Below, piece by piece: positions 1 through 7,910 of a DNA stretch of 64,000 bases; positions within the stretch are counted from its first letter, which is position 1; the number at the start of each line of letters is the position of its first letter. The translations under genes were made by a program, and so were the position numbers. The notes beneath the pieces are model-generated. The model worked only from the letters and a program-made list of their open reading frames with translations, had not been told where the DNA came from and made no database searches. The DNA is taken from positions 9,301-73,300 of the IMG/VR virus record IMGVR_UViG_3300033067_002067; one strand, 5' to 3'. Source of the DNA: a virus.

Positions 1-52
1 CACCTGGCTTTCAATCAGGGTAATGCGAGTTCGAATCTCGTCCGATGCACCA
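1..52 (+). tRNA. tRNA-Glu (anticodon UUC), 5'-truncated by window edge
   Basis: anticodon stem cctgg/tcagg with loop ctttcaa; T-arm gcgag-ttcgaat-ctcgt; 3' acceptor ccgatgc then A73 and CCA. Confidence 0.65.
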
Positions 53-70
53 AATTTATGTGAGAGTAGT

Positions 71-148
71 GCTCTGGTGTAGCACAATTGGTAGTTGCGT
101 GTGGCTGTTAACCACAATGTTGTAGGTTCGAGTCCTACCTCCAGAGCT
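71..148 (+). tRNA. tRNA-Asn (anticodon GUU)
   Basis: anticodon stem tgtgg/ccaca with loop ctgttaa; T-arm gtagg-ttcgagt-cctac; acceptor pairing gctctgg/ccagagc or tctggtg/ctccaga, so the ends are ambiguous. Confidence 0.65.
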
Positions 149-162
149 CTACTCTCACGAAT

Positions 163-237
163 ACCCTGTTGGTATATGGGTTAAAACAACGGTCTGTCTA
201 ACCGTTAAAACGGGTTCGAGTCCCGTACAGGGTGCCA
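163..237 (+). tRNA. tRNA-Asp (anticodon GUC)
   Basis: acceptor accctgt/acagggt, G73, CCA encoded; anticodon stem acggt/accgt loop ctgtcta; T-arm acggg-ttcgagt-cccgt. Confidence 0.85.
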
Positions 238-254
238 ATTTATAGGATGAACAA

Positions 255-473
255 ATGAGACTTAATGTTGAATTTGTAGAGCTAGATGAAGTACCTCAAG
301 AGGGAAAAGAGTTAGCTCAGCTTTTGGTAGATGCTAATCTAGCAGAATCCAAAACAAAAGCACGCCAATCTATTAAAGATGGCGCTGTGAAAATTAACGA
401 CCGTAAGGTCACAGACGCTTTTGCGAGACTTGTTTCGCATGAGAGTCGATACTTCTTGATGCAAAAGAAGTAG
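255..473 (+). CDS. hypothetical small protein (72 aa)
   Basis: ORF in spacer between tRNA genes; no recognisable motif. Confidence 0.4.
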   Translation: MRLNVEFVELDEVPQEGKELAQLLVDANLAESKTKARQSIKDGAVKINDRKVTDAFARLVSHESRYFLMQKK

Positions 474-501
474 TGCTCTTTTGATAATTGAAACGAATAA
501 T

Positions 502-577
502 GGACCGGTAGTTCAGCGGTAGTAACAAGAGACTCTTAATCTCTGTGTCGTGGGTTCGATCCCCACCCGGTCCTCCA
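502..577 (+). tRNA. tRNA-Lys (anticodon CUU)
   Basis: acceptor ggaccgg/ccggtcc, CCA encoded; anticodon stem agaga/tctct loop ctcttaa; T-arm gtggg-ttcgatc-cccac. Confidence 0.8.
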
Positions 578-729
578 ATATTCTATTGCAGCAACACACC
601 TCTTTACTGCTATAAGAGGAACTATAAAACGACTGGGCTAGTCGTCATTGGCGTGACAGTCAATGATCTAGGATAGCAGCTAGATAGGGTTCAAATCCCA
701 ATAGTTACGTGTTGCTTCAATAGAATATT
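578..729 (+). ncRNA. structured spacer RNA between tRNA-Lys and tRNA-Gly (possible stable processed RNA or degenerate tRNA-like)
   Basis: about 20-bp long-range helix aatattctattgcagcaacac (577-597) pairing with gtgttgcttcaatagaatatt (709-729); internal hairpin gactgggctagtc; T-loop-like gggttcaaatccc; exactly fills the inter-tRNA gap. Confidence 0.4.
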
Positions 730-803
730 GCGGTATTGGCACATGGGTTGTGCTCCAGCCTTCCAAGCTGGCTAAAAGGGTTCGAGTCCCTTATACCGCT
801 CCA
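730..803 (+). tRNA. tRNA-Gly (anticodon UCC)
   Basis: acceptor gcggtat/ataccgc, CCA; D-stem gcac/gtgc; anticodon stem ccagc/gctgg loop cttccaa; T-arm aaggg-ttcgagt-ccctt. Confidence 0.85.
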
Positions 804-820
804 ATAATGCTGGTGTAAAT

Positions 821-1216
821 ATGCAAACAATTTGTCTTAATTGCAATGTTGAATTTACTTTTAACAAGTCAAGTTCAAAAGGAAAATTTTGTTCATCGAA
901 ATGCAATGGTGAATATACACAAAATCAAAATATAAAATTCTGGTTATCAGAAAAATTTATACCCAGTTCTTATATTGATAGATCTACTTTAAGAAAGTAT
1001 CTCTCAAGTACAAGAGGATATAAATGTGAAATATGTGCCTTGTCTGAATGGCAAGGCAAAAAAATTACATTAGAGGTTGATCACATTAACGGCTTGTCAA
1101 ACGACAATAGTCCTAAAAATGTTCGACTACTTTGCCCTAATTGTCACTCTCAAACACCTTTTAGAGGACAAGCAAACAAAGGAAGAGGTAGAAAATCTCT
1201 AGGTGTAAAATATTAA
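821..1216 (+). CDS. HNH homing endonuclease (paralogue 1 of 3 in tRNA island)
   Basis: N-terminal CxxC...CxxC zinc ribbon; HNH core LEVDHINGLSNDNSPKNVRLLCPNCHSQT; same architecture as the ORFs at 5419-5862(-) and 7503-7847. Confidence 0.8.
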   Translation: MQTICLNCNVEFTFNKSSSKGKFCSSKCNGEYTQNQNIKFWLSEKFIPSSYIDRSTLRKYLSSTRGYKCEICALSEWQGKKITLEVDHINGLSNDNSPKNVRLLCPNCHSQTPFRGQANKGRGRKSLGVKY

Positions 1217-1217
1217 C

Positions 1218-1291
1218 GCGGCTGTAGTATAAAGGTATTACGTGACGTTGCCAACGTTGAGAAGTCGGATCGTTACCGATCAGCCGCTCCA
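1218..1291 (+). tRNA. tRNA-Gly (anticodon GCC)
   Basis: acceptor gcggctg/cagccgc, CCA; anticodon stem tgacg/cgttg loop ttgccaa; unusual T-loop atcgtta. Confidence 0.7.
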
Positions 1292-1296
1292 AATAT

Positions 1297-1371
1297 GGGC
1301 TCATAGTGATAATGGGAGCACACCGGTTTTGCACTCCGGAAGTAAGAGTTCGATTCTCTTTGGGTCCACCA
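1297..1371 (+). tRNA. tRNA-Ala (anticodon UGC)
   Basis: acceptor gggctca/tgggtcc with two G-U pairs, A73, CCA; anticodon loop tttgcac; T-arm aagag-ttcgatt-ctctt. Confidence 0.7.
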
Positions 1372-6335: not shown

Positions 6336-6407
6336 TGCGCGGGTCGTACTAAGTTAATACGCCTTATTAAAGAAGGAGATGCTGGCTCGCATCCAGCCCT
6401 GCGCACC
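6336..6407 (+). ncRNA. short tRNA-like RNA with degenerate D and T loops (anticodon-loop attaaag)
   Basis: good acceptor gcgcggg/cctgcgc, A73, CCA and T-stem gctgg/ccagc, but T-loop ctcgcat, D-loop without GG and a 4-bp anticodon stem. Confidence 0.4.
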
Positions 6408-6413
6408 AAATTA

Positions 6414-6487
6414 TGGCCGTATAACATAGTGGTAGTGTGCGGGTCTCATAAGCCCAGAGCGCGTGTTCGATTCACGCTACGGCTACC
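6414..6487 (+). tRNA. tRNA with CAU anticodon (second copy)
   Basis: acceptor ggccgta/tacggct, A73, CCA; anticodon stem with GGG/CCC run, loop ctcataa; T-arm gcgtg-ttcgatt-cacgc. Confidence 0.75.
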
Positions 6488-6499
6488 AGTTTTACGCAT

Positions 6500-6570
6500 A
6501 CCAGTAAAGTGTTACGGTAGCACGTCGATCTCCAAAATCGAAAGCGTGGGTTCAACTCCTACTTCTGGTG
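6500..6570 (+). tRNA. tRNA-Trp (anticodon CCA)
   Basis: A1-U72 and G73 as in E. coli tRNA-Trp; acceptor accagta/ttctggt; anticodon stem tcgat/atcga loop ctccaaa; T-arm gtggg-ttcaact-cctac; no encoded CCA. Confidence 0.7.
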
Positions 6571-6584
6571 CGTAAAAATTTATG

Positions 6585-6657
6585 CAGGCGAGCGGATGGC
6601 CGTGTCGGAAACTCCAAATCTCCAGTACCGTGGGATCGTGACCCACCGCCTGTGCCA
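6585..6657 (+). ncRNA. compact tRNA-like gene (possible second CCA-anticodon tRNA or pseudogene)
   Basis: acceptor gcaggcg/cgcctgt, G73, CCA; T-arm gtggg-atcgtga-cccac; D-arm too small (4-nt loop); candidate anticodon loop ctccaaa with an A-C mismatch in the stem. Confidence 0.4.
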
Positions 6658-6696
6658 ATTTTTGATTTCTTTTGTAATGAAAGCAAAGGAGATCAA

Positions 6697-7359
6697 ATGT
6701 CAGTATATACTTCGCCTCTCTATAGAGGTTGGCACAAAATAACAAGTGTCATTTCAGAGATAAGTTGGATGAGCTTATATGCCCTATTCAACGGTGGGCG
6801 AGGATATAATTTAACTGATCATGATCATGAAATGCTGAGACACTATCTAGCTGGCTCGTATTACATTATTCTGATCAATAGAAAGACACATCTAACAACT
6901 TATTTGCTAGGTGCTCTTTCAATGTTTAAAACTGCGAGATGGCCTCAGTATTCACATGCACTTATGAATGCTGATTCAATGGAAGATGTAAAAGACTGGG
7001 ACGATTTTAAGTTTGTCGAAGCTACTTCCGTTGGAGTACATTTTTCAGAATTTATGGAAGTGTTTAACTGTGATTCAGTTTGTCTTCTAAGACCCAAGAA
7101 CCTTTCATTCAAAGAATGGAATGCTGTTATTGATGGTCTACTAGAACAAAATGGTAAGCAGTATGATGACTTGTTTGATTTAACTGATACAAGTCACGTA
7201 TCATGCGTTGAGGTAGTTTTGGATGCACTAAGACAAGATCCAGACTATAAGGACGACTTTGCTAATCTTGAAAAGATGATAGCAGAAGTTGGCAACCTAA
7301 CTCCGCAGATGTATAGAGATTGTCCAGATTTTGAGGTTATTCTGGAAATAAAAAGATAA
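6697..7359 (+). CDS. hypothetical protein (about 220 aa); the likely start is an internal Met of ORF 6568-7359 because the upstream part overlaps tRNA genes
   Basis: SD aaaggag 7 nt upstream of the internal ATG (MSVYTSP...); the N-terminal extension of the ORF-track entry runs across tRNA-Trp and the tRNA-like genes; Cys/His residues hint at a hydrolase, no firm motif. Confidence 0.5.
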   Translation: MSVYTSPLYRGWHKITSVISEISWMSLYALFNGGRGYNLTDHDHEMLRHYLAGSYYIILINRKTHLTTYLLGALSMFKTARWPQYSHALMNADSMEDVKDWDDFKFVEATSVGVHFSEFMEVFNCDSVCLLRPKNLSFKEWNAVIDGLLEQNGKQYDDLFDLTDTSHVSCVEVVLDALRQDPDYKDDFANLEKMIAEVGNLTPQMYRDCPDFEVILEIKR

Positions 7360-7360
7360 T

Positions 7361-7448
7361 GGATAGTAAACAGTGCAATGGAGCGCGCTTCGCCTTGAAA
7401 GCGAATGGAACCGAAAGGTTTGGGGTTCGAGTCCTCTGCTATCCGCCA
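7361..7448 (+). tRNA. tRNA-Ser (anticodon UGA), type II
   Basis: acceptor ggatagt/gctatcc, G73, CCA; anticodon stem ttcgc/gcgaa loop cttgaaa; long extra arm ggaaccgaaaggtt; T-loop ttcgagt. Confidence 0.85.
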
Positions 7449-7502
7449 TTTTATATCGTTCTGCAGACCGTTTGTGCCTAAATATATGATAGGAGGCACA
7501 AC

Positions 7503-7847
7503 ATGAAAATATGGTCCGAAAGATCGAAACAAAACTCAATCGCGCTCATTAAAAATGACGATTACAAACATTTAAATGAAGCTACGATTCGCCGTCACAT
7601 CAAGCATTTTCTTATTGATAGAGACGGCCACGTATGTGCTATATGTCAAAGCAAAGAATGGATGGGTCAGCCTATCCCGCTTGTTTGCGATCATATAGAT
7701 GGTGATATACAGAATAACGATATAACAAATTTTCGCAACGTATGTTGCAATTGTGATGCTCAACTTCCTACGTTCAAAAGTAAGAACAAAAGAGGTAAAG
7801 GCAGACAATATAATCGAGATTATATGCGTGCTAATAAACGCATTTGA
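7503..7847 (+). CDS. HNH homing endonuclease (paralogue 3)
   Basis: SD aggagg; CAIC...CDHIDGDIQNNDITNFRNVCCNCD HNH/zinc-finger core. Confidence 0.75.
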   Translation: MKIWSERSKQNSIALIKNDDYKHLNEATIRRHIKHFLIDRDGHVCAICQSKEWMGQPIPLVCDHIDGDIQNNDITNFRNVCCNCDAQLPTFKSKNKRGKGRQYNRDYMRANKRI

Positions 7848-7850
7848 TTT

Positions 7851-7906
7851 TGGGATACTTACAGCTAAACAAAAACCTAGTTGGTTCGAATCCAACAATC
7901 GCCACC
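7851..7906 (+). pseudogene. tRNA 3'-half fragment (T-arm plus acceptor 3' strand plus CCA) with no matching 5' half
   Basis: gttgg-ttcgaat-ccaac-aatcgcc-a-cca; the only complement of aatcgcc lies downstream (ggcgatt, 7913-7919), forming a hairpin across the start of ORF 7911. Confidence 0.35.
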
Positions 7907-7910
7907 ATTT

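Follow-up and report, generated by a model that had tools for sequence, protein, structure and literature searches.

tRNA island of the window and related loci

The window analysed in this work is a stretch of 64,000 nucleotides (nt) from a viral genome, positions 9,301 to 73,300 of the IMG/VR record IMGVR_UViG_3300033067_002067, and its first part, 1-7910, is an island of tRNA genes. ARAGORN with default settings shows 22 tRNA genes in this island, every one on the + strand, and three further tRNA genes beyond it (10165, 15572 and 16713). In the island, Rfam at gathering score shows the same genes and, in addition, a 5'-cut tRNA at 1-49, and the island extends upstream of the window start. 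Three weaker genes were also found: a second CCA tRNA (6584-6657) and a tRNA-Ser(UGA) (7366-7444) with ARAGORN in permissive mode, and a tRNA at 6337-6405 with Rfam in a narrow window with lax filters (31.2 bits, the gathering score being 29). With these genes, the head-to-tail tRNA island described in a first-pass annotation of the sequence is confirmed. Elsewhere in the window, Rfam reports a partial tRNA core (10933-10993) and a permuted alpha-type transfer-messenger RNA (tmRNA) at 46657-47063. Small open reading frames (ORFs) between the tRNA genes encode HNH homing endonucleases, an RNaseH_like protein and a free-standing C-terminal S4-like domain of tyrosyl-tRNA synthetase (TyrRS), and the rest of the window contains T4-type genes (gp32, gp59, RNase H and late coactivator) and genes encoding a DNA ligase, PhoH and NAMPT.

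In megablast searches against cultured phages only single tRNAs match, and none of these phages is close to the window in DNA sequence; the tRNA-Lys(CUU) at 502-577 shares 85% identity with its counterpart in Ruegeria phage RpAliso. Judging from phage features only, the host is probably an alphaproteobacterium, because the tRNA-His has A73 without an encoded G-1 and the tmRNA is of the alpha-type in two pieces; A73 without G-1 is the alphaproteobacterial type of tRNA-His (PMC5389517). We lean towards reading 1-7910 as the main tRNA island of a T4-like phage, and three genes that the first-pass annotation had flagged as non-standard as working tRNAs of two recurrent phage designs: leucine-anticodon tRNAs without the long variable arm (1463-1539 and 1961-2036) and a tRNA(UAU) with an additional arm, named here five-armed (2491-2583). 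None of the three becomes an ordinary type-II tRNA when folded again by software.

The related loci were obtained through the RNaseH_like ORF (4222-4707), which has 216 relatives in IMG/VR, and 80 loci were taken with their flanks. This sample was chosen via a protein anchor and is independent of tRNA features; it contains 1065 tRNAs called by ARAGORN. Locus L081 is Stenotrophomonas phage DLP6 (KU682439.2).

Structure and distribution of the five-armed tRNA(UAU)

The ARAGORN fold of 2491-2583 shows a 7/5 acceptor/T geometry, a 4-bp D stem, an 8-nt D loop, a 5-nt linker and A73-CCA. The anticodon arm is CGGUC-CUUAUAA-GGCCG, and the 22-nt variable region forms an extra arm, a stem of 4 bp that carries a loop of 7 nt (UCGC-CAGAUUA-GCGA), so that the long arm previously noticed on this UAU tRNA is real. 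This gene has the long arm of class II tRNAs, but neither the anticodon nor the body of a Leu, Ser or Tyr tRNA: its body (acceptor, D and T arms) is nearest to Thr, Ile, Met and Val tRNAs. Regarding isoleucine identity, A73, A35, U36, A37 and A38 are present, in the loop CUUAUAA with canonical U33. Position 34 of the anticodon arm is U, instead of the G34 or lysidine-34 of isoleucine tRNAs, and a G-A-U triplet is found only in the loop of the extra arm.

The UAU tRNAs of the protein-anchored sample number 14 (12 in the 80 loci, plus those of DLP6 and of the window), and all of them measure 91-95 nt and have a CAGAU extra loop. A pattern scan of IMG/VR (TTATA, gap, CAGATWA, gap, GGTTCRA) gave at least 120 loci, and 89 of the 120 listed contain a called tRNA(UAU). 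At least 95 unique five-armed sequences with very different bodies were collected, and across the family the extra loop invariably reads C-A-G-A-U-(U/A)-A, although the search pattern fixes the sequence of this loop and leaves the stems free. In an alignment of 39 diverse members (A1), 95.1% of cells pair versus 63.9% when shuffled, and the covariation score is 0.827 versus 0.223, a value reached by none of 500 shuffles. Covariation is found in all five helices, and the four pairs of the extra arm are all changed on both sides. A73 is present in 92 of 103 family members. Other long odd tRNAs in the loci have 4-nt extra loops instead, mostly GAAA or GCAA.

The extra loop resembles the anticodon loop of tRNA-Ile(GAU), which in the loci is UUGAUAA or CUGAUAA in 57 of 62 genes; therefore, position 33 is the single difference between CAGAUAA and a real isoleucine loop. 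The tRNA-Ile(GAU) of the window has the anticodon arm CUCGC-CUGAUUA-GCGAG, which agrees with the extra arm of the window tRNA(UAU) at 14 of 15 positions, and this near-identity hints at sequence exchange between both genes. A covariation of the sixth base of the extra loop with position 37 of the own tRNA-Ile(GAU) was also sought, and there is none, the window itself excepted. The tRNA-Ile(GAU) of the window (5305-5378) is itself odd: U37 replaces A37 (a single case among 62 in the loci), GG is missing from the D loop, and the T loop reads AGCGUUA.

Members are found in phages of Synechococcus, Sinorhizobium, Acinetobacter, Lactobacillus and Stenotrophomonas, where they are annotated as tRNA-Ile or not annotated. 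In bacterial genomes, 16 of the 120 matches listed are real members. Single chromosomal copies are present in isolates of Allomesorhizobium, Ruegeria, Microbulbifer and two Xanthomonas species (L223, L236, L283, L293 and L297), and copies in metagenome-assembled genomes of Acidobacteriota (L204, L205, L254, L258, L289 and L314) lie inside dense tRNA arrays with 3-31 tRNAs per 8 kb, mostly at least 14. The neighbours of the Xanthomonas, Microbulbifer, Allomesorhizobium and Ruegeria copies are mostly unannotated (RadC, HNH) and do not show a prophage context. The literature searched, which included few subscription journals, covers nev-tRNAs, allo-tRNAs and the tRNA-Ile(UAU) of Mycoplasma mobile, and contains nothing on a tRNA(UAU) of phages with 7/5 geometry and an extra loop like GAU, although an earlier description may exist. 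GenBank already labels members as plain tRNA-Ile or tRNA-Leu.

Leucine-anticodon tRNAs without the long variable arm

The gene at 1463-1539, with anticodon CAA, shows a 5-nt variable loop and A73, as had been proposed with coordinates one base off, together with a leucine-type D arm, A14, A15:U48, G18G19 and an A31.C39 mismatch. The expanded 9-nt anticodon loop offered as an option for this gene is the same structure, as the mismatch equals a 4-bp stem plus a 9-nt loop. The UAA gene at 1961-2036 also has the short variable loop (5 nt) and the A73 attributed to it, with A14, G18G19 and a leucine-type D arm, but it shows G15 and a variable loop that ends in G, and therefore its 15:48 pair is not A:U. 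A third gene (6337-6408) shows A73-CCA, a 4-bp anticodon stem, a D loop without GG and the T loop CUCGCAU, so that it has the leucine-type core only in part. The long variable arm of bacterial tRNA-Leu is absent, with 5-nt loops and, in the UAG gene at 3878-3959, a 10-nt region that forms a mini-hairpin, GC-UUCG-GC.

In the 201 viral loci (L001-L201) and the window, 68 Leu-anticodon tRNAs have type-I length: 24 of 32 CAA, 15 of 92 UAA and 29 of 72 UAG. Tallied by length in the loci, Leu-anticodon tRNAs comprise 75 type II, 58 intermediate and 73 type I. A73 is found in 38 of 38 diverse type-I members. An alignment of 25 diverse type-I Leu-anticodon tRNAs (A3) has 98.6% of cells paired versus 62.6% when shuffled, and a covariation score of 0.996 versus 0.259, which none of 500 shuffles attains; every member has A14, G18, G19 and A73, the frequency of A15 and of U48 is at least 90%, and the D arm has a 3-bp stem and a 10-11-nt loop, as in bacterial tRNA-Leu. 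UUA and UUG codons align to leucine at 0.65 in the codon-position tally described below. The A-UUCAAAA-C loop of 1463-1539 recurs in DLP6 and L178, and DLP6 has a 74-nt tRNA-Leu-CAA, annotated without comment, directly upstream of its long UAU tRNA.

To our knowledge, every bacterial cellular tRNA-Leu belongs to class II. The phage family shares with them A73, A14, G18G19, the usual A15:U48, the D arm and the Leu anticodons, and differs in that the arm is gone (5 nt) or reduced to a 10-nt stub, in the A31.C39 mismatch of the CAA subtype and in the 15:48 pair of the window UAA gene, which is not A:U. In E. coli, leucine identity consists of A73 with A15-U48, G18G19 and A20a, with no need for the long arm or the anticodon (PMC9976931). 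Because E. coli LeuRS requires neither the anticodon nor the arm, the host LeuRS would be expected to charge the arm-less tRNAs. We conclude from their sequences and folds that the short Leu-anticodon tRNAs would be functional leucine tRNAs that shed the class II arm, and 6337-6408 more loosely so. Animal mitochondrial tRNA-Leu is also type I, has no long arm and is recognised mainly via A73 and A14 (PMC9976931); the phage tRNAs differ in keeping canonical D and T loops (6337-6408 excepted) and a bacterial D arm, and there is no evolutionary link between them. Class I tRNA-Leu in phages is not described in the literature searched, with the same coverage of journals.

Other features of the island

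The coordinates of the features in and next to the island are listed in Table 1.

Table 1. Features identified in the tRNA island, with their position in the window, strand and evidence.
Feature	Position	Strand	Evidence
3' portion of tRNA, cut by the window edge	1-49	+	Rfam 32.2 bits, model positions 24-71
tRNA-Asn(GUU)	73-147	+	Canonical; ARAGORN, Rfam (Asn/Asp 59 and 51.6 bits)
tRNA-Asp(GUC)	163-237	+	Canonical; ARAGORN, Rfam
TyrRS C-terminal S4-like domain ORF, 72 aa	255-473	+	Pfam SYY_C-terminal
tRNA-Lys(CUU)	502-577	+	Canonical; ARAGORN, Rfam
Strongly structured RNA, no known family	579-727	+	Minimum free energy -56.9 kcal/mol, z = -7.1
tRNA-Gly(UCC)	730-803	+	ARAGORN, Rfam
tRNA-Gly(GCC), T loop AUCGUUA	1218-1291	+	ARAGORN, Rfam
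tRNA-Ala(UGC)	1297-1371	+	ARAGORN, Rfam
tRNA-like element, 7-bp acceptor, T arm, U73-CCA, without D arm	1379-1461	+	Loose scan
Type-I tRNA, Leu anticodon CAA	1463-1539	+	ARAGORN fold; Rfam 50.5 bits
Type-I tRNA, Leu anticodon UAA	1961-2036	+	ARAGORN fold; Rfam 41.5 bits
Degenerate tRNA-like element	2042-2151	+	D arm, T arm, weak acceptor, ~55-nt irregular middle (RNAfold)
tRNA-Glu(UUC), sole Glu tRNA	2160-2236	+	ARAGORN, Rfam
Hand-folded 8/4 tRNA-like element, CUUUUAA loop	2317-2400	+	Loose scan
Five-armed tRNA(UAU)	2491-2583	+	ARAGORN fold; Rfam 58 bits
tRNA-Gln(CUG)	3405-3478	+	ARAGORN, Rfam
tRNA-Leu(UAG), shrunken variable region	3878-3959	+	ARAGORN fold
tRNA-Arg(UCU)	3967-4042	+	ARAGORN, Rfam
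tRNA-His(GUG), A73, without encoded G-1	4049-4122	+	ARAGORN, Rfam
tRNA-Thr(UGU)	4129-4202	+	ARAGORN, Rfam
RNaseH_like (PF04308) ORF	4222-4707	+	Pfam E = 9e-19
tRNA-Phe	5139-5214	+	ARAGORN, Rfam
tRNA-Pro(UGG)	5221-5298	+	ARAGORN, Rfam
tRNA-Ile(GAU), odd	5305-5378	+	ARAGORN, Rfam
tRNA-Val(UAC)	5388-5462	+	ARAGORN, Rfam
tRNA, CAU anticodon	6156-6232	+	ARAGORN, Rfam
Element of no assigned type	6238-6333	–	No homologs in loci
Third type-I tRNA with Leu anticodon UAA	6337-6408	+	Rfam 31.2 bits, E = 4e-5; RNAfold cloverleaf
tRNA(CAU)	6415-6488	+	ARAGORN, Rfam
tRNA-Trp(CCA)	6500-6571	+	ARAGORN, Rfam
Second CCA tRNA, G73, weak D arm	6584-6657	+	Permissive ARAGORN
(8/4) tRNA-Ser(UGA)	7361-7447	+	Permissive ARAGORN; 8/4 scan; Rfam tRNA-Sec 33 bits
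Permuted tRNA-like RNA, Y-RNA-like	7851-7952	+	z = -5.5; homologs with compensatory changes

The duplications that the first-pass annotation had proposed fared unequally. The CAU tRNAs are indeed duplicated in the island (6156 and 6415), with a third copy at 16713. The two Gly tRNAs of the island are isoacceptors with distinct anticodons (UCC at 730, GCC at 1218), and the second UCC gene lies outside, at 15572. Glu is represented by a single tRNA (2160-2236), and the neighbouring 2042-2151 is called only with a forced 24-nt intron and then as Arg(TCG) i(37,24). From the two Lys isoacceptors proposed, CUU was recovered, and UUU (2317-2396) exists as a hand fold only, is called by neither ARAGORN nor Rfam and has z = -0.5. 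The element drawn there (2317-2400) shows U73-CCA and a 25-nt abnormal D region, and a narrow-window Rfam scan of 2237-2492 gave no tRNA or YrlA match.

Several elements of the island are tRNA-like or of no known family. The 149-nt RNA at 579-727 is closed by a terminal stem of 18 bp and has a five-way junction, one hairpin of which, GGG-UUCAAAU-CCC, resembles a T arm; none of 200 shuffles folds equally well, and neither an Rfam family nor a blastn homolog in the loci was found for it. The element at 1379-1461 contains the hairpin CCGG-CUACGAA-CCGG with a possible anticodon ACG (z = -1.2; Rfam tRNA-Sec 23 bits, E = 1.2). The blastn searches of 578-728, 1379-1460, 2040-2155, 2237-2490, 4705-4870 and 6235-6412 against the loci gave nothing, and the ORF at 2597-3400 has zero relatives in IMG/VR. 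Five HNH/homing-endonuclease ORFs are scattered at 821-1216 (+), 5419-5862 (-), 7503-7847 (+), 8732-9256 (+) and 14182-14682 (+), and they may drive tRNA turnover and leave degenerate tRNA-like remnants.

The gene at 7361-7447 shows all the features of an (8/4) tRNA-Ser: an 8-bp acceptor stem (GGAUAGUA/UGCUAUCC), a 4-bp T stem (GGGG/CCUC), a long arm, the anticodon UGA and G73-CCA. It is 79% identical to an unannotated stretch of DLP6, and similar genes are present in many loci. DLP6 (L081 7372-7460 and 8793-8878) has an unannotated homolog of this 8/4 tRNA-Ser and a long-armed G73 tRNA(GUU), which has an Asn anticodon and is a pseudo-tRNA in GenBank; by its shape, this one could belong to the serine type in spite of an anticodon for another amino acid. 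In the window, 8580-8663 (+) shows an 8/4 tRNA-like fold with acceptor GGAGAGUA/UGCUCUCC, which resembles the acceptor of the 8/4 Ser tRNA, and T arm UCGG-AUCAAGA-CCGA, without CCA.

Variant T loops, AUCGUUA, AUCGAUA or AUCGUGA, are present in the tRNAs at 1218-1291, 3405-3478, 4049-4122, 5305-5378 and 6584-6657; they show A54 with U58 or A58 instead of the usual U54-A58, and the related loci show the same. The tRNA at 10165-10240 (+), called by ARAGORN and not by Rfam, has a CUA (amber-suppressor) anticodon, G73 and an odd T loop, and a CUA tRNA is also present in a relative contig (L444, 1578-1653). Amber recoding by this tRNA was considered and rejected, as only four of 97 ORFs end in TAG and signs of read-through were absent. 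The 72-aa ORF at 255-473 matches Pfam SYY_C-terminal with E = 2.6e-12 and phrog_9270 (tyrosyl-tRNA synthetase). Searched for in the viral loci L001-L201, it gave no homolog, and was discarded for this reason as partner of the long-armed tRNA. A tRNA-Tyr(GUA) was not detected anywhere in the window.

Y-RNA-like elements and a Ro60-like protein

The first-pass annotation had ended the island with a tRNA at about 7850-7910. This segment contains a T arm and the 3' acceptor strand, and the 5' strand and the D arm lie downstream, so that it is part of a permuted element, 7851-7952. The order of its parts is GGGAUAC, UUACAGC, the T arm (7880-7896), AAUCGCC, ACCAUUUAU, GGCGAUU, the D arm (GCAC/GUGC) and GUAUCCC: a terminal stem, GGGAUAC/GUAUCCC, surrounds the T arm, a closed 7-bp acceptor-like hairpin in which ACCA is encoded, and the D arm. 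Homologs are present in L053, L070, L072, L080, L163 and L443, and their terminal, acceptor and D stems show compensatory changes. Copies of the permuted RNA at L053 6083-6200 and at L443 1860-1945 and 1960-2145 conserve UUACAGC; in an L443 copy, ACCA is followed by a 64-nt intervening hairpin, and DLP6 (L081 10293-10355) shows the stem module without the tRNA-like domain.

From its fold, 7851-7952 is probably a Y RNA with YrlA-type architecture. As in the YrlA Y RNAs (Chen et al., 2014, PMC4201824), the terminal stem, T arm, closed acceptor-like stem and D arm are found in the same order, and a Ro60-fold protein is encoded nearby in the window. It differs from them in that the Rfam model fails, the GNCGAAN0-1G motif is only approximated and the Ro60-like partner is predicted. 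The Rfam YrlA (RF02553) and tRNA models show no match on 7820-7990, and YrlA none at E up to 10.

The ORF at 11280-12722 (+) contains DUF2828 and DUF7788 and matches phrog_850, 'RNA-binding protein'. Its AlphaFold model (pLDDT 74, pTM 0.70) has Ro60/TROVE proteins as all its top 10 PDB matches, over the full length and with E = 3e-9 to 3e-5, and 7866 homologs, mostly unnamed, were found at E <= 1e-10 among 8000 scored candidates. On the basis of this model, it seems to represent a Ro60-like family left unflagged by the Pfam model for TROVE. The permuted-RNA motif and the Ro60-like protein are found together in three of the six motif loci versus 17 of 441 loci overall, which exceeds the expectation; the contigs of the nearest Ro60-like homologs end short of the tRNA island. 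At 10906-11022 (+), 260 nt upstream of the Ro60-like gene, there is a tRNA core with a D arm, an anticodon-like arm with the loop CUAUAAA and a T arm, closed by a long terminal stem where a tRNA would have its acceptor stem (Rfam tRNA 49.2 bits, model positions 6-65; homologs in seven loci). Its structure makes it a candidate Yrn1-type Y RNA.

Decoding of AUA and the extra loop

The use of AUA was analysed with 2296 ORFs from the window and the 201 viral loci, compared all-against-all; the residues aligned to each codon were tallied, and AUA codons of the homologs were left out. In the loci that carry the five-armed tRNA(UAU), 273 AUA positions align to I at 0.42, V at 0.18 and L at 0.16, and the profile of non-carrier loci is the same. 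For comparison, AUU and AUC align to I at 0.51-0.54, and Leu codons to L at 0.62-0.71 and to I at 0.06-0.09. The AUA profile is close to that of AUU and AUC, and therefore AUA is used as isoleucine and a leucine reading is unlikely. Recoding of AUA to Leu, Ser or Tyr was rejected on this test; a run with the window only (142 cells) was too small.

In bacteria, reading AUA as isoleucine needs lysidine (TilS) or a specially adapted isoleucyl-tRNA synthetase (IleRS) and ribosome. IleRS reads G34 or lysidine-34, the E. coli enzyme is poor with U34, and phages cannot alter the IleRS of the host. With the UAU anticodon, E. coli IleRS performs 360-fold worse than with the lysidine anticodon, and on E. 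coli ribosomes a tRNA with UAU also misreads AUG (PMC3575796). Taken on its sequence, the five-armed tRNA(UAU) is likely to be a real isoleucine AUA decoder, which would be charged with isoleucine and would read AUA without the host lysidine synthetase, TilS. Its extra loop would act as a recognition handle for a partner, most plausibly IleRS, an obvious choice given that C32, G34, A35, U36 and A38 of tRNA-Ile(GAU) all recur in the loop; we advance this role of IleRS tentatively, as a rather doubtful part of the proposal. The invariant A at the position of U33 would keep the extra loop from decoding. A stricter form, which we regard as slightly more doubtful still, separates identity from decoding: IleRS would bind the GAU mimic on the extra arm and the ribosome would read the true UAU. 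This would involve an alternative conformer with the extra arm and the 4-5-nt linker in the position of the anticodon arm, and would give an AUA-reading isoleucine tRNA that needs neither the host TilS nor an adapted IleRS. Reading AUA as isoleucine is the task that this tRNA would share with tRNA-Ile2, which carries lysidine and depends on TilS, and with the tRNA-Ile(UAU) of Mycoplasma mobile, which also has the UAU anticodon (PMC3575796). The difference is that in M. mobile IleRS (Arg865) and the ribosome are changed, and in the phage the tRNA itself bears the GAU-like arm.

Several observations weigh against an isoleucine tRNA recognised through its extra arm. The codon test reports how AUA is used and is silent on which tRNA reads it, and the GAU resemblance was spotted post hoc. 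Nureki and colleagues are said to have reported, in 1994, C4-G69, U12-A23 and C29-G41 as isoleucine identity pairs of E. coli; the window tRNA has U4-A69, G12-C23 and G29-C41 in their place, and in the family the pairs are found in 24, 28 and 10 of 39 members, respectively. Most extra loops show U where tRNA-Ile has A37, the t6A-bearing base, and A37 matters to E. coli IleRS. In a standard L-shape, the loop of a 4-5-bp variable arm would not lie near the anticodon site of IleRS but away from it, so that an alternative conformer or another binding mode would be needed. That phage UAU tRNAs are always armed, as the 14 genes of the protein-anchored sample suggested, was given up after a second IMG/VR scan, in which ordinary type-I tRNA(UAU) genes of 72-77 nt are present in 95 of the 120 loci listed, certain of them with the same acceptor stems as five-armed members. 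Since these ordinary tRNAs are common, the extra arm is an accessory and not a requirement. Finally, several carrier loci also have a CAU tRNA with an anticodon arm like that of E. coli tRNA-Ile2, and therefore independence from TilS is not forced. A replacement of tRNA-Ile2(CAU) by the UAU tRNA was considered, and carriers have slightly fewer CAU tRNAs, yet several have both, adjacent to each other, and the comparison is not decisive.

Alternative explanations of the two designs

The extra arm could bind a partner other than IleRS, such as an enzyme that modifies the wobble U or position 37, a phage protein, a processing enzyme or a ribosome contact that limits misreading of AUG, and its likeness to GAU would then be a coincidence. 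We give this possibility a minority weight, the largest among the alternatives. A 7-nt loop that is invariant in more than 90 sequences while its stem covaries points to sequence-specific recognition; the existence of armless type-I UAU tRNAs makes the arm an accessory, the U at the 37-equivalent of most loops also fits, and the misreading of AUG by UAU tRNAs on E. coli ribosomes (PMC3575796) makes a fidelity device plausible. No candidate partner co-occurs with the arm, however, the TyrRS-like ORF at 255-473 having no homolog in L001-L201, and the coincidence at C32, G34, A35, U36 and A38 fits precisely the amino acid of AUA itself. The same invariant loop and covarying stems, in at least 95 sequences with very different bodies and hosts, stand against neutral drift, in which the Leu arm was lost because LeuRS ignores it and the UAU hairpin is a tolerated insertion without function. 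Drift is quite improbable in our view, even though the lengths of Leu-anticodon tRNAs form a continuous series in which the window UAG tRNA keeps a 10-nt remnant, and the island contains degenerate tRNA-like elements and homing-endonuclease ORFs. The type-I Leu class is conserved, with a near-perfect cloverleaf; the loss of the arm may have been neutral, yet the resulting tRNA is maintained. Mischarging is the least probable explanation, and a very unlikely one: the UAU tRNA would insert Leu, Ser or Tyr at AUA, recoding the phage or corrupting host translation. Nev-tRNAs have leucine-derived bodies and are charged with leucine. Long arm, A73 and a non-Leu anticodon are the pattern of the nematode nev-tRNA-Ile(UAU), and nev-tRNAs decode an alternative leucine code (PMC3333845); A15 and U48 recur often within the five-armed family, and allo-tRNA(UAU) is the predominant allo-tRNA species, UAU being the commonest allo-tRNA anticodon (Mukai et al., PMC5389517). 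The same work reports (8/4) tRNA-Ser in alphaproteobacterial phage tRNA clusters, and the window resembles these in its tRNA-Ser at 7361-7447 and its tRNA-His with A73 and without G-1. However, the five-armed tRNA has a type-I body of the Thr/Ile/Met/Val kind with a normal 4-bp D stem, 7/5 geometry and A73 instead of 8/4 and G73, and a specific, conserved 7-nt extra loop unlike the arms of Leu, Ser or Tyr tRNAs, so that it is not an allo-tRNA and is unlike the nev-tRNAs, and AUA in carriers is isoleucine-like and indistinguishable from that of non-carriers.

Evasion of host defence would account for both designs at once, the altered bodies (Leu arm lost, UAU arm gained) resisting host enzymes that cut or inactivate tRNAs while decoding is kept, and Pnk aiding repair. 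Cases in which nuclease resistance is shown or proposed include the tRNA-Lys of T5 against PARIS and a tRNA-Tyr against the retron Eco7. According to one proposal (van den Berg, 2023, PMC10264068), selection favours phage tRNAs that are insensitive to anticodon nucleases, and some tRNA-targeting toxins, such as MenT3, favour certain tRNA classes. In the window, a large tRNA set with features that are not host-like is accompanied by a Pnk-type repair enzyme, as in those systems: a split Pnk formed by a HAD_PNKP ORF (44567-45031) and an AAA_33 kinase ORF (45412-45924), just upstream of the permuted two-piece tmRNA at 46657-47063 (+; Rfam tmRNA_permuted 86.5 bits, alpha_tmRNA 63.2 bits). The designs are conserved, hence under selection and not in decay, and the sole UUU (Lys-type) candidate, a classic target of PrrC, has an abnormal body. 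On the other side, the published changes are located in the anticodon loop or stem and those described here in the variable region, the anticodon loops of the leucine-type and UAU tRNAs looking ordinary. The complete repair set expected from the first-pass annotation was recovered only in its Pnk: RNA ligase and Tpt1 families have no Pfam match in about 70 ORFs of the window, and the sole ligase found (48911-49777) is of the DNA-ligase type. The designs span cyanobacterial, Firmicutes and proteobacterial phages, which a general translational role fits better; evasion leaves the invariant GAU-like added loop unexplained, and simpler accounts exist, as LeuRS needs no long arm and the UAU tRNA supplies AUA decoding. 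We therefore hold evasion to be unlikely, if less so than drift.

Implications

Annotation pipelines tag both designs plainly as tRNA-Leu or tRNA-Ile, or miss them. The counts of phage tRNAs should also allow for tRNA-shaped RNAs that are not tRNAs, such as the Y-RNA-like elements that adjoin a Ro60-fold protein. The arm-less Leu tRNAs indicate that the split between class I and class II, usually deemed fixed in bacteria, would be routinely broken in phages. If the proposal of an isoleucine tRNA recognised through its extra arm is true, the UAU family would be a third, portable answer to AUA decoding and a rare natural case of an identity element relocated off the anticodon, which would bear on the rules of tRNA identity, on the codon strategy of phages in AUA-poor hosts and on the engineering of orthogonal tRNAs.

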